A stretch of DNA of 38,352 nt, taken from positions 1 to 38,352 of the forward strand of contig MEYT01000036.1 of NCBI GenBank assembly GCA_001774105.1, given 5' to 3'. The translations under genes were made by a program, and so were the position numbers. The notes below the pieces were generated by a model. The model saw only the letters and a list, made by a program, of their open reading frames with translations. It was not told the DNA's origin and searched no databases. How positions within the stretch are numbered: the stretch's first letter is position 1; each line of letters opens with the position of its first letter. This DNA is from Candidatus Azambacteria bacterium RIFCSPLOWO2_01_FULL_46_26 (GTDB lineage: Bacteria > Patescibacteriota > Minisyncoccia > UBA9936). Positions 3,559-38,280 of the stretch are shown in pieces.

Positions 3559-4443
3559 TTACCTCTCGGTTTTCACTTTCAACTCTCGACCATTGCTCAA
3601 TATTTCAACCGTGCCGTTTATGTCGTTTCTGAAAATTTGCGTTCCAAATTGTCCAAGCCGCGTCAAAACTTCGCGGGTCGGGTGGCCATAGGAATTTTTA
3701 CGGCCGACCTGAATCACGGCGATTTTTGGGCCAACGGCTTTTAAAAATTCTTCGGAACTTGAGGTCTTTGAACCGTGATGAGCGACTTTCAAGACGTCCG
3801 AGGCCAAATTTGCGCCGTTTTCGGCCGCGAGTCCGATTTCAACCGGCGCCTCAATGTCGCCGGTAAGCAGAAAAGAATTTTTGCCGAAACTCAGACGGCC
3901 GACAATTGAGGCGTTATTCACGTCGCCGGAATAATATTTGCCGGCCAAATCTTTTTCGGGATGCAGAATTTCAAAATAAACCCCAGAGCCCAGCCGAATT
4001 TTCTGTCCTTTTTTGGCGATCGTCACGGGAATATTTTTCTCTTCAATGACCTTTTGCCATTCCGCGAAAGCCGGTGAATTATACAAAACGCCGGTGGTCA
4101 AAATCCGGCCGATTTTATACCGTTTCGCGACTTCAATCAGGCCGGCCATGTGATCAAGCTGAGGGTGAGTCAAAATCATCAAATCAATCGAGCGATCGTA
4201 AAAAGGCATCAGCCGCCCGAGCCGCGACAGAATTATCGAATCCGGCCCGCCGTCCACGAGGACTTGATTGCCGGCAGGGGTCTGAATGAAAATAGCGTCG
4301 CCTTGGCCGACGTCAAGATAATTAACGGACACGGAATCGCCGGGCGGCAATGTCAGGACGACAAACCAGACCAAAAACGCGGTTGCCGCGAGAAATCCCA
4401 AAAAATAAAATTTTAAATTCTTGATAAACCTTGACTTTTTCAT
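3559..4443 (-). CDS. ComEC-associated metallo-beta-lactamase-fold protein (stand-alone C-terminal nuclease domain)
   Basis: LDVGQGDA, THPQLDHMAG, LTGD, KVAHHGSKTS and GHP motifs; N-terminal membrane anchor. Confidence 0.92.
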   Translation of the reverse strand: MKKSRFIKNLKFYFLGFLAATAFLVWFVVLTLPPGDSVSVNYLDVGQGDAIFIQTPAGNQVLVDGGPDSIILSRLGRLMPFYDRSIDLMILTHPQLDHMAGLIEVAKRYKIGRILTTGVLYNSPAFAEWQKVIEEKNIPVTIAKKGQKIRLGSGVYFEILHPEKDLAGKYYSGDVNNASIVGRLSFGKNSFLLTGDIEAPVEIGLAAENGANLASDVLKVAHHGSKTSSSEEFLKAVGPKIAVIQVGRKNSYGHPTREVLTRLGQFGTQIFRNDINGTVEILSNGRELKVKTER

Positions 4444-4459
4444 TAATATGAATTATACT
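4431..4459 (+). promoter_or_regulatory. Sigma70-type promoter for the small Cys-rich ORF
   Basis: TTGACT-N17-TATACT, overlapping the start of the divergent MBL gene. Confidence 0.55.
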
Positions 4460-4490
4460 ATAATAACAAAATTTAAAGAGAGGAGGGGGA

Positions 4491-4688
4491 ATGAAGACAG
4501 TAGAGGAAAAGGGAAACGCCTGCCACGACAGATTCGAAGAAGGACGGGGAAACAGCACGGGTCCCGAACACATGACAGAGACAAACCAGCTGGTGGAATG
4601 CCTGCACTGCCCCGACGCGGCGGAATGCTGGGAAGACAAAGAACAAATTTTTAATCTTTTAAGACAAAACCAGTACAGCCAGGAATAA
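4491..4688 (+). CDS. Small acidic Cys-containing hypothetical protein
   Basis: 65 aa; strong SD (GAGGAGGGGG) and upstream promoter; fills the gap between the two comEC halves; C-x25-CxxC-x5-C pattern. Confidence 0.6.
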   Translation: MKTVEEKGNACHDRFEEGRGNSTGPEHMTETNQLVECLHCPDAAECWEDKEQIFNLLRQNQYSQE

Positions 4689-4699
4689 CAAACGTTTAA

Positions 4700-6256
4700 T
4701 CAAACGGGGCCGGAAAATAAACCGGCTCTTTTCTTTAACCAAAAACCAAGCCAAATCAAAAGAGCGTAATACAAAACGGCGAAAATAAAAGGAAAATTAA
4801 AAATTTCAAGCGAAGCGTAAGGAAATTTGGCCAGGCCTTCGACAACCCAAATTTCATAGCTCAAAAACAGCCAGACAACGGAAGCGGCGATCTTGGCCAA
4901 GGGCATAAAAACAAAACCGAGCGCGGCCGAAATAAAACCGAAAAACATGGTCAGCGGAATTGCCGGCAAAATCAAAACGTTGGCCAAAGGAGAAATCAGG
5001 GAGAGCCGGTCGAAATTGTAAATTAAAACCGGCAGAACCGCCGCTTGAGCCGATATCGTCGTCAGGAATATTTCTTTTATTTTTTCAAAAGCGCGCTTTG
5101 CAAACGGCGTTAATTTTTCTTCCATTTCCTGTTTCATGAAAATTCTCGCCAAAATCGGCTGGAAATAAATCAAGCCCAGCGCGGCCAAAAAAGAAAGCTG
5201 AAAGCCCGCGTCCCAACGTAAAAGTTTCGGATTAAACCAAAGCATCGCCGCGGCGGCGAAAACAAGAGCGTTGGTAACCTGATAAATCCGCCCTTCTTTC
5301 GAGGCCAACAAAACCAAAGAACCCATGATCGCGGCCCTGACCACCGAGGCCTGAGCGCCGGTCAGCGCGGTAAAAAATAAAATGGTCAGCAAAGTGAGCC
5401 AAAAAATCATCGGCCGCGACAATCGCAAAAATCCCAAAAACGCGGCCAGAACGAAAGCAATGATGGTTATGTTGTAGCCGGAAATGGCAATAATATGAGT
5501 GACGCCGGCAGTATTAAAAGCCTCCATCAAATCCGGCGGAATGGCCTGGCGGCTGCCGATCAAAAGCGCGCTTAAAAATGAGGCTTGCGGCTCGGGCAAA
5601 ATTTGAGCGATAACTTCTTCAAACTTATTTTTGAAAGATAAAATATATCGGTAATAAATTTTTCCGTTGCCGAAAGAAATCTGATTGATGTATTTTGGAT
5701 AAGCGATAACGGAAAAAATATCGTCTTTTGCCAAAAAGGCGCGGTAATCAAAATCATCAAATTTCGGCGGGGTCTTCAATTTGCCGACGATCTCTATTTC
5801 GTCGCCGTACTGATATCGCGGATATTTTCGGGCCGTTACGATGATTCTTCCGCCGACGCCTGCCTGCGCAGGCAGGTTTGTCTCGGCGTTGCCGGCCAAT
5901 TTAATTTTCGACGCCCTGACTTCGTATTTGACGGCTGCCGGCCCGGCCTCCGGTTCATTATCGATAATTCCGATAATGGACGCTTCCCCCAAATCGTTGT
6001 AAGAGCTTATCGGAATTTCCGGCGACAAATTCTCCGGCTTTGAAAGAAAATCCTGCCGCCAAAAAGCGACCGCGGCGACAATGACGCAAAAACCCAACAA
6101 AACAATTTTTTTGTTCTTCCAAAAAACGGAAATTAAAAATATTCCCAAAATCAAAATTCCCCCTAAAAATGACGGGGGAATTTTGATTAAAGAACTCAGT
6201 CCGATTCCAACAATGAAAGAAAAACAGAGGAGTAAAAATATTTTCGCCTTGGACAT
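4700..6256 (-). CDS. comEC: ComEC/Rec2 DNA uptake channel (OB-fold plus competence domain)
   Basis: GVTHIIAISGYNI, ASVVRAAIMG and DAGFQLSFLA motifs; many TM helices. Confidence 0.95.
   Translation of the reverse strand: MSKAKIFLLLCFSFIVGIGLSSLIKIPPSFLGGILILGIFLISVFWKNKKIVLLGFCVIVAAVAFWRQDFLSKPENLSPEIPISSYNDLGEASIIGIIDNEPEAGPAAVKYEVRASKIKLAGNAETNLPAQAGVGGRIIVTARKYPRYQYGDEIEIVGKLKTPPKFDDFDYRAFLAKDDIFSVIAYPKYINQISFGNGKIYYRYILSFKNKFEEVIAQILPEPQASFLSALLIGSRQAIPPDLMEAFNTAGVTHIIAISGYNITIIAFVLAAFLGFLRLSRPMIFWLTLLTILFFTALTGAQASVVRAAIMGSLVLLASKEGRIYQVTNALVFAAAAMLWFNPKLLRWDAGFQLSFLAALGLIYFQPILARIFMKQEMEEKLTPFAKRAFEKIKEIFLTTISAQAAVLPVLIYNFDRLSLISPLANVLILPAIPLTMFFGFISAALGFVFMPLAKIAASVVWLFLSYEIWVVEGLAKFPYASLEIFNFPFIFAVLYYALLIWLGFWLKKRAGLFSGPV
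5859..5876. repeat. 18-bp perfect palindrome inserted in frame in comEC
   Basis: CCTGCCTGCGCAGGCAGG, translated as LPAQAG. Confidence 0.75.
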
Positions 6257-17411: not shown

Positions 17412-17585
17412 TTATCGATCGGCCAAGGCCAGAACGTAGCCCTTTTCAATCAACTCTTGCAAGCGCCATTTCGGCACGTAATCATAAACCAACTTCTTCT
17501 TTTCCTTGTCCCAGCAAAGAACGTGAACGTAACCTTGTTCTTCGCTAAGTTTTTTGACATCCTCAGGCGTAAAAGCTCTTGCCAC
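17412..17585 (-). CDS. 57-aa hypothetical protein (absent from the ORF track)
   Basis: SD AAGGAGG, GTG start; MARAFTPEDVKKLSEEQGYVHVLCWDKEKKKLVYDYVPKWRLQELIEKGYVLALADR; ends just before the terminator. Confidence 0.65.
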   Translation of the reverse strand: MARAFTPEDVKKLSEEQGYVHVLCWDKEKKKLVYDYVPKWRLQELIEKGYVLALADR

Positions 17586-17631
17586 GATTTTCCTCCTTCC
17601 AAACGCCTTCCATCACGCCATCCAATCTTTA

Positions 17632-17814
17632 CTAGTCCCTTATGGCCACATACATTGTCGCGAGAATAATTCCCAGCGCCATTGAGCCGAGTCCGGCAAG
17701 CGCGAACAAAAAAGGAGAATCGCTCGCGGCTCCGCCCAAAACTATCGTTATCGCGCCCCCGTACACCAAAAGTCTTGAAGACGCCGCAAGCGCCGAATGC
17801 CAAAAATTTCTCAT
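17632..17814 (-). CDS. 60-aa small membrane protein (two TM helices)
   Basis: SD AAGGAGG before the ATG; two hydrophobic segments. Confidence 0.65.
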   Translation of the reverse strand: MRNFWHSALAASSRLLVYGGAITIVLGGAASDSPFLFALAGLGSMALGIILATMYVAIRD

Positions 17815-17838
17815 TTGTCATCCTCCTTATAATCCTTG

Positions 17839-17925
17839 TCAGAATCCGAGCAGAGAAAGCGCCAAAAGCAAAAAACAAACGAAGTACAAAAACGCCAGCA
17901 CGGAAAGCTTTTCCCATTTTTCCAT
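17839..17925 (-). CDS. 28-aa single-TM peptide
   Basis: AGGAGAG SD overlapping the cytochrome c stop; MEKWEKLSVLAFLYFVCFLLLALSLLGF. Confidence 0.5.
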   Translation of the reverse strand: MEKWEKLSVLAFLYFVCFLLLALSLLGF

Positions 17926-17933
17926 TTTCTCTC

Positions 17934-18278
17934 CTACTTCTGCAGTTCGCGTATGTAACTTACGATGTCGTGAATCTGATCTTCCGAATAAGTGTCCGCG
18001 TAAGGCGGCATTCCGGTTCCGGGAACTCCTTTGGAAATCTTCTGGAATAACTGCCCGTCGGTCATTTGTTTCACCCGTCCGTCGCGTAAAGACGGAATCA
18101 TCGGCGGCATGCCTTCGCCCTTTGGACGATGACATCCCACACAGCTTTTTCCGTATAAAACCTTTCCGTTCTGTGCGTTGCCGGCGGCATCGGCCAATGT
18201 CGTAAAAATAGTCCCGCAAAAGACAATCAAAACAATACCAATAATAAAAACCGGAATAATCAACAATCTTTCTTTCAT
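17934..18278 (-). CDS. Monoheme class I cytochrome c (c6/cbb3-III-like), exported or membrane anchored
   Basis: GKVLYGKSCVGCH heme motif, distal Met in GMPPY, terminal DIVSYIREL helix; hydrophobic N-terminus; SD GAGGGGG. Confidence 0.93.
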   Translation of the reverse strand: MKERLLIIPVFIIGIVLIVFCGTIFTTLADAAGNAQNGKVLYGKSCVGCHRPKGEGMPPMIPSLRDGRVKQMTDGQLFQKISKGVPGTGMPPYADTYSEDQIHDIVSYIRELQK

Positions 18279-18337
18279 TGTCATCCCCCTCTTTTTTGTT
18301 GTCAAACAACTTGCCGCACCTCTTTAAACTATTAAAG

Positions 18338-18365
18338 ATTATAAGCTAAAACCATAAAAAGTCAA
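18338..18365 (-). promoter_or_regulatory. Sigma70-type promoter of the monoheme cytochrome operon
   Basis: TTGACT-N16-TATAAT. Confidence 0.65.
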
Positions 18366-18405
18366 GGGAAATTTAGATAAAAGCGGATATCCGGGTTTTC
18401 AATGT

Positions 18406-18437
18406 AAAAATAAACCCCGCACAATATTTATGCGGGG
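18406..18437 (-). terminator. Intrinsic terminator after the NHL gene
   Basis: CCCCGCA...TGCGGGG followed by TTTATTTTT on the minus strand. Confidence 0.7.
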
Positions 18438-18458
18438 CAACAATTTACCACTTTTATT

Positions 18459-19835
18459 TTACTTGACTTTTAACCTTCCGTAACCAAACACCGCCACCTT
18501 GCCGTGCGAAATGCTCTTATCGCCAACCTTTTCAATCGCTCCGCTCTGGCTTGTTATCCAGATCAGATATTCAATCTCAAAATCAGGCGCGGCGAACTTC
18601 TGAAAGTATTTAATGTTTTCCGGGCTGGTGTCAACCGCCATATCGCTCGGGCGCTCCAAATTGGGCACTTTCTGGCCGGATGTTTCGTCAAACACCGGTT
18701 CTCCGCCCCAGACGGCGTAAGGAAAATACACCAGGTCTCCTCTTGCGTTATCTTTCGGCAAGATCTTTTCAGAAAATGTTTTAACGTAAGGCAAGCGGAC
18801 AATGCGCGCGCTCTGCCCGACCAAAGTGATGCCGCTGTCCAAACCGTATATGTCACCGTTGGGAGCCGCGGCCACGGCCAACGCGCTGTCAAAGCCCAAA
18901 ATATTGGGGGCACGCACGCCGAATTGATCAATGAATTTGCCCTCGGAATCGAATTTCAGGATGCGGCCGTTCATTTCCTCACTGATATACAGATTATTTT
19001 GGCCGTCAACGTCAACGTCCGACGGCTGATGGAGCAGAATTTTTCCACCCCGCTTCGTTTGAATGTCTTTTGTCAACGCGTCGGCGGAAGACGCGACTTT
19101 TTGCTGCACTTCCTTTTTTTCCAGAACCTTCTCGCTGCCGCCGTTCTCCGCAAATTCTTTCCAAATTTCCCGCGGCATTCCCACAACCCTTAAAATTTCC
19201 CCGGTGTTTTTATCAAGAATAAAAACGCTTTCCGCGGACGGTTTATTTGACAACCTTTGAAGGCCCTGATCAACCGCGTAAATTTTGTCTCCTTTTATCC
19301 TGATTCTTTGGGGAGCAAAAACGCAATTGATTTTTTTCAGAAGATTCATCTTTTCGTCAAAGACCGCGATTTTTTTCGCCGAAGGATACGTCAAATATAA
19401 AAATCTTCCGTCCGTATCCATTCCAAAAGCGTCGCTGAACTCTTTTCTCTTGACTTCTTCGACTTTCGGCGGATTGGAAAGGAAATCAAACACCCAAACG
19501 GTGTCGCCGTCCAGAATGTACGCCCTTCCCTCCATCACCGCGATTGACGTCGGCGAACCGATAAAACGATCGGGTTCTGTTTTTTCACCGAGCAGAATAT
19601 CGAGCCATTTTGGCGTTTTCTTCGCGGGACCCTTCAAGGTAAAAAGCAATTGCCATCTTTGAATCTGATTAAGCGGCATGTCTTTGAATTGCTCCGGCAG
19701 TTTATGGGGATAAAAACGCTCTTCTTCGTCGGCCTCCGCTCCCCCGTTCGGAATGCTTTTATTTTCGGCGAGGGCATTAGAGCTAAAACAGACGAGCAGT
19801 AAAAAAATCGGAACCAATCGTGTCAATCGCGTCAT
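18459..19835 (-). CDS. Secreted NHL-repeat beta-propeller protein
   Basis: Signal peptide ending ALA; repeated blades such as PTSIAV..YILD and PSDVDVDGQNNLYISEEMNGRILKFDSEGKFIDQFG. Confidence 0.85.
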   Translation of the reverse strand: MTRLTRLVPIFLLLVCFSSNALAENKSIPNGGAEADEEERFYPHKLPEQFKDMPLNQIQRWQLLFTLKGPAKKTPKWLDILLGEKTEPDRFIGSPTSIAVMEGRAYILDGDTVWVFDFLSNPPKVEEVKRKEFSDAFGMDTDGRFLYLTYPSAKKIAVFDEKMNLLKKINCVFAPQRIRIKGDKIYAVDQGLQRLSNKPSAESVFILDKNTGEILRVVGMPREIWKEFAENGGSEKVLEKKEVQQKVASSADALTKDIQTKRGGKILLHQPSDVDVDGQNNLYISEEMNGRILKFDSEGKFIDQFGVRAPNILGFDSALAVAAAPNGDIYGLDSGITLVGQSARIVRLPYVKTFSEKILPKDNARGDLVYFPYAVWGGEPVFDETSGQKVPNLERPSDMAVDTSPENIKYFQKFAAPDFEIEYLIWITSQSGAIEKVGDKSISHGKVAVFGYGRLKVK

Positions 19836-19906
19836 TTTGATTCTCCTTTCTTTGGTTGTTTTTCAGAAATTTCATCCCGCTTCTTTTTAAAAAGAAGCGG
19901 GATTTC

Positions 19907-21982
19907 TTAAAAATGTCTTGCAAGATTAATCCTGAAAAGGAATCCGTCTCTCTCCGTGTTGTTTTCATTGACTTCGTACTTCTCCAAAGCTCTTCTGATA
20001 AAAACATTCACGGACAACTGCCTCACTTCATGAGAAAACGCCAATTGCAAGGCCGAAACGTTTCTTTCGGTTTTGCCTATTGCGGAGGAGTCATAAGTTA
20101 CACCAGCCGTCACTCTCGTCTTGACGGTTTCGAAAATAGCGTTTATTCCGGAATTTAAAAGCCGGATGTCGTTCTGCTCCGTTTTGCGATAGTCAATATC
20201 GCTTCTGCCGCCCTGCCATGTTAAACGCAGTTTTTCATTAACCGGAATCGTGAGCGAGAACCTCGACGTCGCACGGTGAAAAGGGTAATTCAGTTGGGCA
20301 TTATCTTCAAAATCAATGCCGGATGTTATTTCCGCTTTCCGCCACCGCTCAAACGCGTATCTTGAATCCAAGCCGAAACTTCGGTTTTGACCGGAATTAT
20401 CCGATAACTGATTGTAGGCGCTTCCGCTCCCGCCGGTTGTGTTTTGTTCAACGTTTCTTAAACGAAAATACGGCTCAGCCAGTCCGTCAAACAAACTGAT
20501 TCTTGCCGAAACAGTTTGAACGGTATTTCGCGCCAAACCGCGCGGCACAAAATTTTCGTACCCAACAAGCACGGTTTCTCCGTTTAAAATCCGCGTTCCG
20601 GGAATTCTTTCGACATAAGTCGGAGAGCCGAGCTTGTAAATCCGGTAGTCCGCTCCTTCCTGGTAAATTATCGTGCCGGAAATGTCGGTTACCACAACCG
20701 ATTCCGTCGAAATTTCCTGTCCCTCCAGCATAACCGCTTCGTAATCGGAGATTTTATGCATTTCCCCGCTGACAAAAACGTGTTCTTCTCCCGCCCTGAA
20801 CAGATCCGACGATGAAATTTCGTAGCCCAAAGAAAGTTTTCCGTCAAAAGCGGGAAAAATTTGTTTGGCATAGTCAACCCGCGCCAATTTTTCATCCAAG
20901 GTTTGTTCAAAAGCGGAAAATTGTTTTTTTTCGCGCCCAGCTTCCACTTCGGTAAAAAGACTCTCGCCCAATTGATGGGAAAAGCCGCCGCGCGCCTCAT
21001 AAGCGTTTTCTTCTTTTGACAGCCATTCGCTTTCCGCGGCGCCGCCCGAAACTTCCCGGTTTATTTGAGAAGCGCCGAAACTGACAAAGCTGTCCAGTTT
21101 CTGCAATTTGTCGCGAAAAATCCAAAACCGTTGTTCCTGCCTGAGAGCAAAACCGGAATAATCCGAAACGCCGTTCCGCGAATTCAAACTCAAAGACGTC
21201 TTTGTCCTCAAGGTATTGTCCAAAAATTTACCGGCTGCCGTTCCATGGAAATAATGGCTGACGTAATCCGATTCATGCTCTTTTTGGTTTAAAGAAAAGC
21301 GTCTTGAATAGAGCTGTTCGCGAAAATTCAAGTTAACGGAAACTTTTTCCCATTGTTTTTCCGTGTCCGCCTCGAAACTTTTCCGTTCTTCGTGAATGTC
21401 AAAATCATAATCGACAAGCGATTTATTGCCGCGAAAAACATTACTTGCGTCGCTGCCGAAGACGTCAAAACGAAAATTCAAGGGCCAGCCGACAACGGTT
21501 TTTCCCAAATCAAACGTTAAACCGCCGTGTTTTTGGTCGGCCAAATAATCCATGTTAGGCGTATGGCCGATATCCGCGAGGCGTCTTTGAAAAAAGAATG
21601 AACCGCCGTAAGGAGTTTCCTTCAAAAAATATCCGTCAATACCGAAATTTTTCGCGAAATCCGCTCCTTGATATTCCGCGAGGCCCTGACCGAACGCAAT
21701 TCCGCCGCCAACTTTCAGCCCGACAAACCTCTTGTGATAAATGAAAAATCTTTCTTCGATTCTCAACTCTTCATTCATCAGCCGGTACTCGCCGATAATT
21801 TTATTTTTTCCGGAACTAATCTTTTGTAGGTCCTCCCGCAGGGAAAATCCAAGTTCGCCGGCCGGGCGTTCGAAATAAAACGGCCCAAAATTCGCTATCG
21901 GCTTAATTTCGGCGGACTCGCAGATTGGCGTCAGACAAAACAAAATCACGAATCCTATCGCGAACAACAATCTCCTGGTCAT
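19907..21982 (-). CDS. Predicted outer-membrane beta-barrel (porin-like) protein
   Basis: Signal peptide from ATG 21982 (SD AAGGAG); about 690 aa rich in G/F/Y/S/R with alternating amphipathic strands; C-terminal FLFRINLARHF ending in Phe (beta-signal); adjacent to multiheme cytochromes. Confidence 0.72.
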   Translation of the reverse strand: MTRRLLFAIGFVILFCLTPICESAEIKPIANFGPFYFERPAGELGFSLREDLQKISSGKNKIIGEYRLMNEELRIEERFFIYHKRFVGLKVGGGIAFGQGLAEYQGADFAKNFGIDGYFLKETPYGGSFFFQRRLADIGHTPNMDYLADQKHGGLTFDLGKTVVGWPLNFRFDVFGSDASNVFRGNKSLVDYDFDIHEERKSFEADTEKQWEKVSVNLNFREQLYSRRFSLNQKEHESDYVSHYFHGTAAGKFLDNTLRTKTSLSLNSRNGVSDYSGFALRQEQRFWIFRDKLQKLDSFVSFGASQINREVSGGAAESEWLSKEENAYEARGGFSHQLGESLFTEVEAGREKKQFSAFEQTLDEKLARVDYAKQIFPAFDGKLSLGYEISSSDLFRAGEEHVFVSGEMHKISDYEAVMLEGQEISTESVVVTDISGTIIYQEGADYRIYKLGSPTYVERIPGTRILNGETVLVGYENFVPRGLARNTVQTVSARISLFDGLAEPYFRLRNVEQNTTGGSGSAYNQLSDNSGQNRSFGLDSRYAFERWRKAEITSGIDFEDNAQLNYPFHRATSRFSLTIPVNEKLRLTWQGGRSDIDYRKTEQNDIRLLNSGINAIFETVKTRVTAGVTYDSSAIGKTERNVSALQLAFSHEVRQLSVNVFIRRALEKYEVNENNTERDGFLFRINLARHF

Positions 21983-22132
21983 CGCTTTTCTCCTTTTGTA
22001 TTCTATTGTTAAAAAACGTGCGAAATCAATCGCAAATTTTGTCGCGAATACCGAAAAACTGATTCGGAACAAAATTCGAGATTTATTAAGGGCCGGAGAA
22101 TGAAATTTTAATTTCATTCTCCGGCTTCTTTA

Positions 22133-22831
22133 TTATTTTTTCGTCAAATGATGGATGTCATTGTGGCAAGCGACGCATTGCGGAAAATTCCACATCGCCT
22201 GTTTTTGAGGCGTATCGTCCGGAGCCGGTTTGTGGCACTGCATGCAAACTTCTTTTTCCGCCATTTTCAAAAACTTTTCTTCTTTGTTGTGCGGCTCGTG
22301 ACAGGTAAGGCATATTCCGGCCTGATTCAATTCTTTGGCTTTTTCTGCCGGAAAATGACTGAAGTCCTTTTTATCCATGTGACACTGCGTGCAAAGATCA
22401 ATATCGGCCTTTTTTAAAAGTTTTTTTTCTTTTGACCGATGAGGTTCGTGGCAGAAACCGCACATTCCCATTTTAACCGGCCAATGCCTTTCTTCTCCTG
22501 TAAACGATTCCTTGTCGTGGCATTGAAAACATGTTTCAGCCAAAGCCGGTCCTATTGTCATCGGCTTATCGTCTTTGTGGCAAGCGTTGCACCATTGCTG
22601 CTTCCATGGCACGTGCCGGCTCTGCCATTTCTCCTCCTCTTTTTGCTTCATCTTCTTGACAATGTCGGCTATATCTTCGGAAGACGAATGGCTTTTTTCT
22701 TTTTCTTTCCGCAATTCTTCTTCCGCGGGCACGCCGTCAATGAAAAAAGAAAGCCATTTCCTTCCGTTTGTCCCAGCGCATCCGTTCACAATAATAACGA
22801 TCAAAAATATCAAAACCGGCCATTTTTTCAT
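22133..22831 (-). CDS. Heptaheme c-type cytochrome, probable lipoprotein
   Basis: Seven CxxCH motifs (CNACH, CFQCH, CGFCH, CTQCH, CLTCH, CMQCH, CVACH) in paired HxP..CxxCHxPH arrangement; lipobox-like VNGC. Confidence 0.95.
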   Translation of the reverse strand: MKKWPVLIFLIVIIVNGCAGTNGRKWLSFFIDGVPAEEELRKEKEKSHSSSEDIADIVKKMKQKEEEKWQSRHVPWKQQWCNACHKDDKPMTIGPALAETCFQCHDKESFTGEERHWPVKMGMCGFCHEPHRSKEKKLLKKADIDLCTQCHMDKKDFSHFPAEKAKELNQAGICLTCHEPHNKEEKFLKMAEKEVCMQCHKPAPDDTPQKQAMWNFPQCVACHNDIHHLTKK

Positions 22832-22970
22832 TTCATCACCCCCTTTTATTACCGTTTGCGATTTAGATTACCTTCAAGACAGCGGCACCGCGCCGATTAC
22901 GCGATTATCAAAGAATCCATCATTTTTAAAGGTGCAAGCGGTATTTATTTTCTCCGCTATTTTCACGCGA

Positions 22971-22999
22971 ATTATACAGAAAAATCCTATAAAAGTCAA
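22971..22999 (-). promoter_or_regulatory. Sigma70-type promoter of the heptaheme-porin-NHL operon
   Basis: TTGACT-N17-TATAAT, about 140 nt upstream of the ATG. Confidence 0.75.
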
Positions 23000-23034
23000 G
23001 TATATTAAGGGAATTCGGACTTCATCTTACTAAT

Positions 23035-23067
23035 TAAAAAACCGCAGATAATTTTTATATCTGCGGT
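23035..23067 (-). terminator. Intrinsic terminator after the tetraheme cytochrome
   Basis: ACCGCAGATA...TATCTGCGGT followed by a T tract on the minus strand. Confidence 0.8.
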
Positions 23068-23087
23068 GATTGATTAATTCTTTTTTG

Positions 23088-23762
23088 TTATTGATGCAAA
23101 TCCTGCCATTTTCCTTTATGGCAAGCGCCACAAAGAGTGCCGCCTATTCCGTTGCCGTCATCATCAAACGGAAGAGTGAGGTAATGTCCGTAAGGTCCGC
23201 CGTCGCCTTTGTGCATATAGCCGTGGCAAGTGGCGCAAGTCAGAACATTTTTATTGGGGCCTCCCAAATAAAACGTCTCTTGCATCTCCGAGAGAGGCGC
23301 CATTACATCCTGTAAAACCGAAGGCGTTCGGCTGCCGCGCCGAGAGATTAAGTCGTCGGTAATTTCCACGCCGATGGGATGATGGATGTGCCCGTCCGTC
23401 GGATTAATGTACTTTTCCGACAGATGAGAACTGCTTATCCATCTGGGGTTGCCGTGACACTTAAGACAAAATTCGCCGAGCGGATCAAGTGTCGGAGTGG
23501 ACAATATCGTGTAAGACGTATAATTTTGCCAAACTCCGCTTGCGTCAAATTCGCTTGTCGAACGATAAAGCCAGGGGTATCCCGGGAAAATGGTTTTGCC
23601 GTCCTGAAGTCCCGCGTGCTCCGCGTTGTGACAATTCGCGCAAGTAGTGGGGTTGTAAGCCGGATTATAAGTGTGGCCGGCGTCAGCTTCAGGAACAACC
23701 ATCCAAAGCATTACCGCCGTAAGTATTAAAACCGCCGTCGCGCATGCCATTTTCTTTAGCAT
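23088..23762 (-). CDS. Secreted tetraheme c-type cytochrome
   Basis: Four CxxCH motifs (CANCH, CLKCH, CATCH, CGACH), HHPIG motif, Sec signal ending ADA; SD GGGAGGG. Confidence 0.93.
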   Translation of the reverse strand: MLKKMACATAVLILTAVMLWMVVPEADAGHTYNPAYNPTTCANCHNAEHAGLQDGKTIFPGYPWLYRSTSEFDASGVWQNYTSYTILSTPTLDPLGEFCLKCHGNPRWISSSHLSEKYINPTDGHIHHPIGVEITDDLISRRGSRTPSVLQDVMAPLSEMQETFYLGGPNKNVLTCATCHGYMHKGDGGPYGHYLTLPFDDDGNGIGGTLCGACHKGKWQDLHQ

Positions 23763-37300: not shown

Positions 37301-37365
37301 GGGCCGTTAGAAATTTAATGGCCCGGAATTCTTACAAACTATAATAGATCAATTTCTAACGGCCC
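37301..37365. repeat. 15-bp inverted repeat element abutting tRNA-Arg
   Basis: GGGCCGTTAGAAATT (37301-37315) and AATTTCTAACGGCCC (37351-37365). Confidence 0.8.
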
Positions 37366-37433
37366 TCGTAGTTCAACGGATAGAACAGCACACTCCTAAC
37401 GTGCGGATCGAGGTTCAATTCCTCGCGAGGGCA
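37362..37433 (+). tRNA. tRNA-Arg(CCT)
   Basis: GCCCTCG/CGAGGGC acceptor, GTTC/GAAC D stem, loop CTCCTAA, T loop TTCAATT; CCA not encoded. Confidence 0.93.
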
Positions 37434-37487
37434 CATAGTAAAATGAATAAAAAATTAAAACAGACTCGGTATATCATATAATTACTA

Positions 37488-37516
37488 TTGCACATGGAGG
37501 CTTTTTTGGGTACAAT
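37488..37516 (+). promoter_or_regulatory. Sigma70-type promoter predicting a leaderless transcript
   Basis: TTGCAC-N17-TACAAT, ending 6 nt before the ATG at 37523. Confidence 0.6.
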
Positions 37517-37522
37517 AGTATT

Positions 37523-38215
37523 ATGAATAGAACGAAAATAAAAAAGAAAGTTCGTCAACTTCGTTCTAACGGCAAAACCTACAAAGAAATTCAAAAAAAA
37601 TTAAACTCTCGGATTCCTAAAAGTACTTTATCAAATTGGTGTCGCGGCATTGATCTGCCCAAGAACTATTTTCTAAAGGTAAAAGAGTTAAACAATAGAA
37701 ATTTAGCAAGAGGCAGGCAGACCAGTTTATTAAATCGAAAAAAACAGCAAGAATTATTCTTAAAACGTAAACGAGAAGAGGCGGAAAAAGCTATAACTAA
37801 ATCGTCTTTAAGTGGTTTGCATCTAAAATTAATTCTTGCCACTCTGTATTTAGGTGAAGGCGCTAAATGGAAAGGTCATCGCGGATTAATGCTTGGCAGT
37901 TCTGACCCGATAATTATTCTTCTCTATATTAAACTTCTTAGTAAATGCTATGGAATAAATAGAAATCAGTTAAAATGCAGAATTAGTTACCGCGCAGATC
38001 AAGATATTGAGGCATTAGAAAAATATTGGTCTAAAACCACGGGAATTCATAGAGAAAATTTCTACCAGACCAAACCAGACCCAAGAACAATAGGTAAAAA
38101 AACTTTAAAAAGCCAATATAAAGGCGTTTGCGTAATAACTTGCAAAGGAACAGACATTCAATTAGAACTAGAACAACTTATAAATACTCTGGCCAAGAAA
38201 ATAACGGGCCTGTAG
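37523..38215 (+). CDS. HTH plus LAGLIDADG-like domain protein, putative tRNA-associated endonuclease
   Basis: N-terminal HTH (LRSNGKTYKEI..IPKSTLSNW), LATLYLGEGAK helix and SSDP motif; very basic; visibly more AT-rich than neighbours. Confidence 0.6.
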   Translation: MNRTKIKKKVRQLRSNGKTYKEIQKKLNSRIPKSTLSNWCRGIDLPKNYFLKVKELNNRNLARGRQTSLLNRKKQQELFLKRKREEAEKAITKSSLSGLHLKLILATLYLGEGAKWKGHRGLMLGSSDPIIILLYIKLLSKCYGINRNQLKCRISYRADQDIEALEKYWSKTTGIHRENFYQTKPDPRTIGKKTLKSQYKGVCVITCKGTDIQLELEQLINTLAKKITGL

Positions 38216-38280
38216 CTTAGAGGAAAAGCGTGTGCATGGCATGCACAAGACCGCGGGTTCGAGTCCCGCCAGGTCCACCA
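38206..38280 (+). tRNA. tRNA-Ala(GGC)
   Basis: GGGCCTG/CAGGTCC acceptor with G3:U70, TGTGC-ATGGCAT-GCACA anticodon arm, TTCGAGT T loop, encoded CCA. Confidence 0.97.

Follow-up and report, generated by a model that had tools for sequence, protein, structure and literature searches.

Why would a bacterial protein-coding gene end inside a transfer RNA (tRNA) gene? The question was raised by a stretch of 38,352 nucleotides (nt) from Candidatus Azambacteria bacterium RIFCSPLOWO2_01_FULL_46_26 (Patescibacteriota; contig MEYT01000036.1), which was analysed over its whole length and is called the window here. Near its right end, an open reading frame (ORF) of 230 amino acids (aa) runs into tRNA-Ala(GGC). 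From the comparison of homologous loci, the unit from about 37488 to about 38212 is probably a site-specific selfish cassette of the free-standing homing-endonuclease kind, placed at the 5' flank of this tRNA. The locus contains the following features.

37362..37434, + strand: tRNA-Arg(CCT), upstream flank of the cassette (ARAGORN; Rfam, 62.4 bits)
37523..38215, + strand: ORF of 230 aa plus stop, ATG start, helix-turn-helix (HTH) domain joined to an endonuclease-like domain
38206..38280, + strand: tRNA-Ala(GGC) (ARAGORN; Rfam tRNA match at 38206..38277, 66.5 bits)
38206..38215, + strand: overlap of ORF and tRNA, 10 nt; stop TAG at 38213-38215, i.e., tRNA nt 8-10 (U8-A9-G10)

The 3' end of the ORF reads ACG GGC CTG TAG, and its last 10 nt are nt 1-10 of tRNA-Ala(GGC). 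A sequence-only reading of this locus had placed the stop codon inside the tRNA and described the gene as AT-rich, and both statements were confirmed, the former by ARAGORN and Rfam. The GC content was 0.334 at 37501-38000 against about 0.46 in the whole window, and at third codon positions (GC3) it was 0.278 in the ORF against 0.529 in the long flanking ORFs. The tRNA itself looks intact, because the G3:U70 pair and an encoded CCA were read from its sequence.

Homologs of the window protein were abundant. A protein collection clustered at 90% gave 620 homologs at E<=1e-3, and a library at 50% identity gave 1848 clusters at E<=1e-3, 479 at E<=1e-10 and 93 at E<=1e-30. The named homologs belonged to Parcubacteria-type candidate phyla and were labelled 'hypothetical'. 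Species-representative genomes were scanned with two strict peptide patterns; 58 stretches matched and 46 were confirmed (L001-L046), a number that is not the frequency of the gene. At 45 of the 46 homologous loci, a same-strand tRNA was located at the gene's end. It was tRNA-Ala(GGC), on the + strand directly after the gene, in 37 loci and tRNA-Val(GAC) in 8 loci, L038-L045 (32-37% identical). The abutment of homologs on tRNA 5' ends, which the sequence-only reading had suggested counting, was therefore observed. On the upstream side, tRNA-Arg(CCT) is the direct + strand neighbour also in L002, L003, L007, L010, L016, L020 and L023.

The exception is L030, with tRNA-Ala(GGC) upstream on the minus strand, divergent, and no tRNA downstream of the gene. 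In this sole divergent locus (3828-4699), the tRNA 5' end faces the start of the family gene at a distance of about 90 nt.

The stop position was scored at 46 junctions, i.e., the 45 loci and the window. The stop codon was tRNA nt 8-10 in 28 junctions, including all 8 of the Val type, and was TAG except in L012 (TAA). It was found elsewhere within the tRNA in 10 junctions (nt 11, 14, 20/21 or 27), and the ORF of L005 reads through the entire tRNA. Overall, the stop was inside or past the tRNA start in 39 junctions and began 2-16 nt before tRNA nt 1 in 7. The stop within the tRNA is frequent, not obligatory. The same trait was visible in public protein data, which carry no genomic context: the penultimate residue was Gly in 86 of 223 full-length-like family proteins, compared with 5.4% Gly overall, and the tails RAHSLEEKR, RAHSSVG and GPVAQR resemble translated tRNA 5' ends. 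Many of the tails resemble a translated D-arm. As a control, the other 90 tRNAs of the same loci were inspected, and for 6 of them an ORF with 150 aa or more was seen to end at -15..+29. Endonuclease-like genes, taken up below, account for three of the six. The other three (L010, L023 and L029) were ordinary genes stopping 2-13 nt before the tRNA, and none of the three overlaps it. The tRNA junction is a trait of the family and not chance.

When every ORF of 50 aa or more from the loci and the window was searched by profile, three further family members were recognized.

L001 2306-3025: Arg-type paralog, stopping 14 nt before tRNA-Arg(CCT)
L039 3090-3932: Gly-type paralog, stopping 36 nt before tRNA-Gly(GCC)
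L041 4983-5702: Gly-type paralog, with the stop at nt 13-15 of tRNA-Gly(GCC)

L001, L039 and L041 thus hold two family members per tRNA cluster, and sublineages specific to Ala-GGC, Val-GAC, Gly-GCC and Arg-CCT tRNAs were demonstrated. A rule by which the target tRNAs share G34/C36 anticodons (GGC, GAC and GCC) was considered and dropped, since a paralog was found at tRNA-Arg(CCT). The sequence-only reading overlooked a large family with tRNA-specific sublineages and the other endonuclease families of the same niche, which are described below.

The transcription of the cassette was considered from the following sites.

37488..37516, + strand: family-specific promoter, -35 box TTGCAC at 37488-37493 and -10 box TACAAT at 37511-37516, 17 nt apart
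37455..37482, + strand: second promoter-like site, TTAAAA-16-TATAAT, giving a leader of about 35 nt if used
37483..37520, no strand: 11-nt inverted repeat (37483-37493 / 37510-37520), 91% complementary, embracing the -35 and -10 boxes

In the window, 6 nt separate the end of the -10 box from the ATG, and no Shine-Dalgarno sequence is present between them. The window alone does not prove a leaderless messenger RNA (mRNA), because the second promoter-like site exists; that site is not conserved in the other loci. Of the 35 loci whose start is clear, 29 have a -10-like hexamer (mostly TACAAT) that ends 6-8 nt ahead of the ATG, an arrangement that predicts a leaderless mRNA in agreement with the sequence-only reading. 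The motif T[TG][GT][CT]ACA-N13-17-GTA[CT][AG]AT was matched 18 times in 721,450 nt on both strands, and the promoter belongs to the cassette because all 18 matches were directly upstream of a family gene. The 11-nt inverted repeat is a candidate operator for a dimeric HTH protein. The nearest upstream tRNA was on the opposite strand in 12 loci, and therefore read-through from an upstream tRNA operon cannot feed the tRNA there. A tRNA-specific promoter inside the ORF was unsupported: synonymous sites at the ORF 3' end vary as freely as elsewhere, with no conserved promoter, and the promoter scan of the window gave no site within 280 nt of the tRNA.

Further upstream, at 37301-37365, the window has a perfect 15-nt inverted repeat, GGGCCGTTAGAAATT / AATTTCTAACGGCCC, with 35 nt between the arms. 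The right arm overlaps nt 1-4 of tRNA-Arg(CCT), and a TATAAT box is placed within the loop. Two other repeats of the window, D3 and I3, are short and imperfect and were taken as chance.

The history of the cassette was compared with that of its neighbours. The identity of the gene was only loosely related to that of the adjacent tRNA (r 0.33 over 861 pairs). L002 and L006 showed 83% protein and 81% DNA identity with tRNAs 58% identical, and L001 and L006 showed 80% and 82% with tRNAs 59% identical. In the opposite direction, tRNAs 99% identical were adjacent to genes only 60% (L004-L008) and 50% (L015-L025) identical. Among L001, L002, L003, L006 and L007, the DNA similarity runs from the -35 box to tRNA nt 4-7, and the upstream neighbours differ, i.e., tRNA-Glu, tRNA-Arg(CCT) or a tRNA-like sequence. 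The last of these, at about 3885-3960 in L006 upstream of the cassette promoter, resembles the tRNA-Glu(TTC) of L001, has a 9-nt anticodon loop and was called by neither ARAGORN nor Rfam; it could represent a tRNA that is degenerate or unusual.

A syntenic protein of about 350 aa in the upstream flank gave a grouping different from that of the family gene. Judged from the flank protein, L001, L006 and L007 share 72-77% identity, L010 follows with 64-65%, and L002 and L003 with 52-55%. By the family gene, L002 is 78-82% identical to the trio of L001, L006 and L007, and L010 is only 54-55%. In the approximately unbiased (AU) test with 8 loci, whose groups were chosen after the identities were seen, the gene data rejected {L001, L006, L007, L010} (p 0.0008) and the flank data rejected {L001, L002, L003, L006, L007} (p 2.4e-8). 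The flank proteins of the Saccharimonadales loci L032, L033 and L036 are 76-80% identical with family genes of 42-57%. In 41 of 43 loci, the gene was lower in GC than its flanks, and in 36 of 42 it was lower in GC3. A tree of the family with NCBI phylum labels was uninformative, as most branches were poorly supported and many entries were titled 'uncultured Candidatus Saccharibacteria bacterium'. These data show that the cassette moved between genomes independently of its neighbours. Strict vertical conservation at the locus, which would have contradicted the sequence-only reading, was not found, given the AU conflict with the syntenic neighbour and the decoupled gene and tRNA identities.

Degraded copies and empty sites were also recognized. 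The copy of L046 keeps only residues 157-219 before its tRNA, and those of L018 and L020 have N-terminal frameshifts. The loci and the window together have 19 tRNA-Arg(CCT) genes, of which only one has a family member upstream, and tRNA-Val(GAC) of L029 is empty. At the Arg-type paralog of L001, a 27-nt displaced copy of tRNA-Arg(CCT) nt 1-27 lies at 2318-2344, just upstream of the paralog's promoter, and it agrees with the tRNA of L007 at 26 of 27 positions (E 2.7e-7). The downstream tRNA-Arg(CCT) of L001 is intact, having a different 5' part together with a 3' acceptor strand that matches. In L006 and L007, the relatives of L001, the site of this paralog is empty. No displaced tRNA fragment was detected at any of 38 Ala-type copies. 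A cassette that always carries the tRNA 5' part was accordingly rejected for the Ala type, where the similarity ends at tRNA nt 4-7 and displaced fragments are missing.

A separate observation was made in L004, where 2702-2719 is an exact 18-nt copy of nt 1-18 of tRNA-Ala(TGC), 143 nt upstream of that tRNA (2863-2934). The insert between them has a long perfect hairpin and no ORF. The arrangement may have been left by an insertion into the 5' portion of the tRNA, or may be a small mobile element.

The protein encoded by the cassette is composed of two domains joined by a helix.

37523..37660, + strand: N-terminal HTH, homeodomain-like / transposase PAI type, residues 1-46 (Pfam, PDB profile)
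37667..37801, + strand: long single helix linking both domains, residues 49-93 (AlphaFold2 model)
37805..38212, + strand: C-terminal alpha/beta domain, residues 95-230, no Pfam family (AlphaFold2, Pfam)
37835..37861, + strand: LAGLIDADG-like motif LATLYLGEG, residues 105-113 (E112 codon at 37856-37858)

In domain search, HTH_3 was matched in the window protein (E 7.5e-4) and HTH_23 in 26 of 111 members at E<=0.01, and the family profile hit the PAI domain of Sleeping Beauty in PDB (E 0.0017). The AlphaFold2 model from a 30-sequence alignment had an overall predicted local distance difference test (pLDDT) value of 90.5 and consisted of the HTH, a 45-residue helix and the alpha/beta domain; a single-sequence model was poor (pLDDT 57) and was unused. 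NCBIfam had no family for the window protein, the PDB sequence search with the single protein gave chance-level matches only, and tblastn against 50,697 phage records gave no match. The PHROGs search matched HTH-type regulator families only. No recombinase or transposase catalytic family was matched in Pfam or NCBIfam (111 members for Pfam).

Conservation was counted in 111 sequences down to 28% identity. E112 was E in 107 sequences and D in 1, and G113 was kept in 103. The counts were 105 for K115, 110 for R157, 102 for D159, 105 for Q160, 110 for D186 and 109 for R188, and both W169 and Y199 were kept in all 111. Eight conserved polar residues are thereby assigned to the C-terminal domain, i.e., E112, K115, R157, D159, Q160, D186, R188 and Y199. 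Third codon positions were near saturation with the key residues fixed. The protein is under purifying selection, because synonymous sites are saturated and these residues are invariant.

The modelling lends support to, but is no proof of, a homodimer of the C-terminal domain. The homodimer model of residues 95-230 scored 0.46, compared with 0.00 in the best of 3 controls, and passed the mark used for this score; among proteins of known structure, 20 of 30 solved as same-chain pairs and 1 of 23 solved as single chains attained that mark. At least 78% of contacts were common to the runs, with pLDDT of at least 80. The modelled interface is symmetric and is formed on helix 96-112, in which residues 100, 104 and 107 make self-contacts. 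In the model, helix 98-111 has LATLYLGEG at its C-terminal end, and the modelled two-fold dimer fits the geometry expected of single-motif LAGLIDADG enzymes.

Other endonuclease genes were found at tRNA 5' edges of the same loci. The ORF at L006 4875-5930 matched Pfam LAGLIDADG_3 (6.4e-10), plus LAGLIDADG_1 and LAGLIDADG_2. It has an N-terminal HTH and is of the double-motif type, and its stop is at nt 23 of tRNA-Ser(CGA) (5909-5998). This protein has 1014 homologs at E<=1e-5, some of them named 'LAGLIDADG family homing endonuclease' by NCBI. Of the 120 homologs listed among the 1014, 102 end in GEVPKWS, GGVPKWL or GGVG-like tails by a pattern written after the tails were seen. These tails can be read as the translated tRNA-Ser 5' end, with confirmation at the DNA level in L006 alone. 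The ORF at L041 2741-3475 has a pair of canonical LAGLIDADG motifs, with a Pfam LAGLIDADG_3 match that falls just short of the cut-off (E 2.9e-4). It stops 7 nt ahead of tRNA-Leu(GAG), in the cluster that also holds two members of the window family. At L006 997-1473, an ORF with an HNH motif fills the spacer of tRNA-Arg(TCT) and tRNA-His and ends 11 nt before tRNA-His. In L007, the spacer (1084-1727) is of similar length and has a 48-aa ORF only, and 3-15 nt separate the two tRNAs in L001, L010, L017 and L023. The tRNA 5' edge is a shared address for endonuclease genes in these genomes, because LAGLIDADG and HNH genes also end at tRNAs here.

How would such a cassette persist at a tRNA? In the proposed mechanism, a dimer with HTH and LAGLIDADG motif (E112) would recognise and cut tRNA loci without the cassette. 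The occupied allele would serve as the repair template, and the cassette would be copied in with conserved tRNA genes on one or both sides as homology. Incoming DNA could arrive by competence, for which the ComEC gene in the window (4700-6256) would be a route. The cassette promoter would give one RNA bearing both the ORF and the tRNA. RNase P cleaves at tRNA nt 1. Where the stop is inside or past the tRNA start (39 of 46 junctions), this cut would therefore yield the tRNA and a stop-less mRNA, so that endonuclease output would stay low and expression would be self-limited. The tRNA would come to depend on the cassette promoter, and if the cassette were lost, the tRNA would be left with no promoter. 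We infer the cleavage activity, the loss of the stop upon tRNA processing and the driving of the tRNA by the cassette promoter.

Several results weigh against the reading of the unit as a homing-endonuclease cassette, and they begin with the fold of the C-terminal domain. No nuclease family was assigned to this domain by Pfam, PDB profile, Foldseek or hhalign. The window protein had no Pfam LAGLIDADG family at E<=10, none of the 111 members matched Pfam LAGLIDADG at E<=0.01, and LAGLIDADG_3 appeared in only 4 of 111, below cut-off (E 0.013-5). The family profile searched against PDB sequences gave no solved LAGLIDADG protein even at E<=10. By Foldseek, the model had nothing at E<1e-3 in PDB or BFVD; the top PDB matches were OmpA-like and IspF proteins, and in BFVD LAGLIDADG or homing enzymes came only at E 0.8-1.1 (ranks 20, 25 and 39), with a best root-mean-square deviation of 3.0 A over 114 columns. 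Compared with the alpha-beta-beta-alpha-beta-beta-alpha core, the modelled domain has an extra helix between strands 3 and 4. In hhalign, the bona fide LAGLIDADG_3 (PF14528) family aligned at the HTH only (probability 2%), the double-motif protein of L041 aligned at the motif region over 47 columns with 32% identity (probability 1.3%), and the comparisons with this family and with two individual LAGLIDADG proteins were not significant.

The ESM Atlas gave a similar result. The 30 models nearest to the C-terminal domain had no LAGLIDADG Pfam family, and the feature search of the domain against named clusters gave no usable match. Two of the nearest clusters were auto-named 'Homing endonuclease LAGLIDADG domain-containing protein', and these are probably the same family as the window protein. 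The closest structural neighbours (template modelling score 0.82-0.92) were unnamed clusters and HTH_23 proteins of 280-310 aa from Actinomycetota. Another neighbour was a 154-aa cluster whose commonest known taxon is Uroviricota, the tailed phages. The domain reaches beyond Patescibacteria, because Actinomycetota and Uroviricota neighbours were found in predicted structure. It is reasonable to describe the C-terminal domain as LAGLIDADG-motif-bearing with the fold unassigned. The LAGLIDADG assignment of the sequence-only reading is not established, with no Pfam match above cut-off, no PDB or BFVD match at E<1e-3 and no profile-profile similarity; the motif and the modelled dimer fit it.

The remaining points on this side concern movement and the junction. 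The groups of the AU test were picked with the identities in view, and the frameshifts, found in metagenome-assembled genomes, may be assembly errors. The evidence of empty sites is confined to the Arg and Val types. The copies of real Saccharimonadales branch at the base of the Ala clade, and the Val clade stands apart (support of 100 for both), so a good part of the inheritance may be vertical, and descent within the classes also plays a role. The 7 junctions with the stop before the tRNA are also on this side.

A domesticated HTH transcription factor is an unlikely explanation. In that case, the nuclease-like domain is dead or repurposed, and the protein binds the inverted repeat of its own promoter, controls the co-transcribed tRNA and benefits the cell. 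WhiA, a LAGLIDADG-derived HTH protein acting as a transcription factor, is a precedent. Such a regulator would be expected to have the HTH domain, the modelled dimer and the strong purifying selection, yet the near-invariance of the acidic motif residue and seven other polar residues goes beyond what DNA binding should require. The 11-nt inverted repeat across the -35 and -10 boxes of the window and a promoter motif conserved well past the sigma-70 hexamers and exclusive to the gene agree with this explanation, as does the absence of a detected nuclease family. Against it stand the conflict of gene and flank trees, the decoupled identities of gene and tRNA, the truncated and frameshifted copies, the GC consistently below the flanks and a tRNA-Arg(CCT) mostly without a family member (1 of 19 occupied). 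The bona fide homing-endonuclease genes in the same niche also speak against it.

An integrating element is quite improbable. By this explanation, a recombinase- or transposase-like protein inserts the cassette into the tRNA 5' part and brings a replacement 5' segment, mirroring the integrases of tRNA 3' ends. L001 fits it, with the former tRNA-Arg nt 1-27 left upstream of the paralog and, downstream, an intact tRNA whose 5' part differs, but this is the one clear displaced fragment beside a family member. The 18-nt copy of tRNA-Ala(TGC) in L004, with its hairpin-bearing insert between, is of the same appearance. At the Ala type, the 5' part of the tRNA is not carried along with the gene, as the similarity ends at nt 4-7 and 38 copies are without a fragment. 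The resemblance of the N-terminal domain to transposase/resolvase HTH and the conservation of Y199 (111 of 111) with R157 and R188 (109-110 of 111) would suit a recombinase, yet no catalytic family of recombinases or transposases was matched. An ordinary gene that ends near a tRNA in a compact genome, with the overlap due to chance or ORF calling, has practically negligible probability. Tight packing does occur, as three ordinary genes (L010, L023 and L029) end 2-13 nt before a tRNA, but none of these control genes overlaps it. In contrast, 45 of 46 homologs abut a same-strand tRNA, frame and stop position are identical in 28 of 46 junctions, and the same tail signature is carried by family proteins across public data. 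This explanation is refuted because of the tRNA linkage and the shared junction geometry.

A broader proposal is made tentatively and is rated somewhat less likely than not. Patescibacteria may have a guild of unrelated homing-endonuclease genes in tRNA 5' leaders, comprising the window family, the LAGLIDADG_3 family and HNH genes. These would replace the tRNA promoter and stop on codons of the mature tRNA, mostly U8-A9-G10, and each transcript would become either an mRNA or a tRNA plus a stop-less message for ribosome rescue. If so, it would be a new entanglement of a selfish gene with an essential host RNA, which caps the endonuclease dosage and makes clean loss costly. The recurrence in many Patescibacteria points to a little-known niche for selfish genes. 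If the cassette mechanism is true, nature provides an RNA on which maturation of the tRNA competes with the termination of translation, and part of the tRNA-cluster variability in ultra-small bacteria would be explained. The family would then be a source of proteins that bind or cut DNA specifically at tRNA genes and whose HTH and catalytic modules are separable, and the Pfam-less domain with eight near-invariant polar residues is a candidate for structural work.

The remaining genes of the window are ordinary housekeeping genes of the Patescibacteria type, including FtsZ, FtsA, ribonucleotide reductase, several aminoacyl-tRNA synthetases and ComEC. At 22133-23762, two adjacent ORFs have multihaem cytochrome c motifs (Paired_CXXCH_1, 8.1e-27; Cytochrome_C7), which are unexpected in a region otherwise resembling a metabolically reduced Patescibacteria bacterium. 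At 17450-22117 on the minus strand, three successive long ORFs (155, 458 and 736 aa) were without a Pfam match at E<=1e-5.

The known homes of homing endonuclease genes include introns, inteins and the intergenic regions of phages. The literature search found nothing on the window family or on endonuclease genes overlapping tRNA 5' ends, and a large family at the chromosomal tRNA 5' edge with the stop inside the tRNA was not found described in the literature searched. LAGLIDADG enzymes were reported in ribosomal RNA (rRNA) insertion sequences of candidate phyla radiation (CPR) bacteria, including the homodimeric I-ShaI, in a paper that does not mention tRNA (PMC11270868). Single-motif homodimers of the I-CreI type, including I-ShaI, share with the window family a helix ending in an acidic residue and Gly (LATLYLGEG here) and a two-fold dimer through the motif helix, which is a modelled one here. 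I-ShaI also has a Patescibacteria host and a highly conserved RNA gene as address (PMC11270868). In contrast to this type, the window family is free-standing, not in an intron or insertion sequence, and is beside tRNA, not in rRNA (PMC11270868). It also differs by the N-terminal HTH and 45-residue linker helix of the window protein, and has no significant sequence, profile or fold match to LAGLIDADG.

The LAGLIDADG_3 (PF14528) family of L006 is similar in another way. It belongs to the same phylum, has an HTH followed by a nuclease domain, and is placed directly 5' of a tRNA with the stop inside it. Unlike the window protein, its protein is about 350 aa with two motifs (monomer type), is bona fide in Pfam and is located at a different tRNA. 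The two families have no detectable homology outside the HTH.

Free-standing homing endonucleases of T4-like phages have been described, with SegB in a tRNA gene cluster (PMC13096335). T4 SegB is the nearest functional parallel to the window family, as both are free-standing endonuclease or endonuclease-like genes among tRNA genes. SegB is reportedly a GIY-YIG phage enzyme with its own stop codon and no tRNA overlap, and is said to perform 'intronless homing' with the neighbouring tRNA region. The window family differs in being chromosomal, in cellular genomes, and in overlapping the tRNA.

Phages and integrative and conjugative elements (ICE) that insert into tRNA genes and restore them use tyrosine integrases, target the tRNA 3' part and are kilobases long. 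The window cassette resembles them in using a tRNA gene as a conserved address, and L001, with its displaced tRNA fragment and an intact tRNA across the insert, is a further likeness. Unlike them, the cassette uses the 5' edge, is about 0.73 kb and has no integrase.

In mitochondrial 'tRNA punctuation', stop codons are incomplete and are completed by polyadenylation. Non-stop mRNAs in mitochondria are treated in one paper (PMC9674279). As in tRNA punctuation, tRNA 5' processing at the window locus would set the mRNA 3' end, and the status of the stop would depend on the cut. The difference is in the outcome, as processing here would remove the stop codon, and ribosome rescue of the message, in place of normal termination, is predicted.

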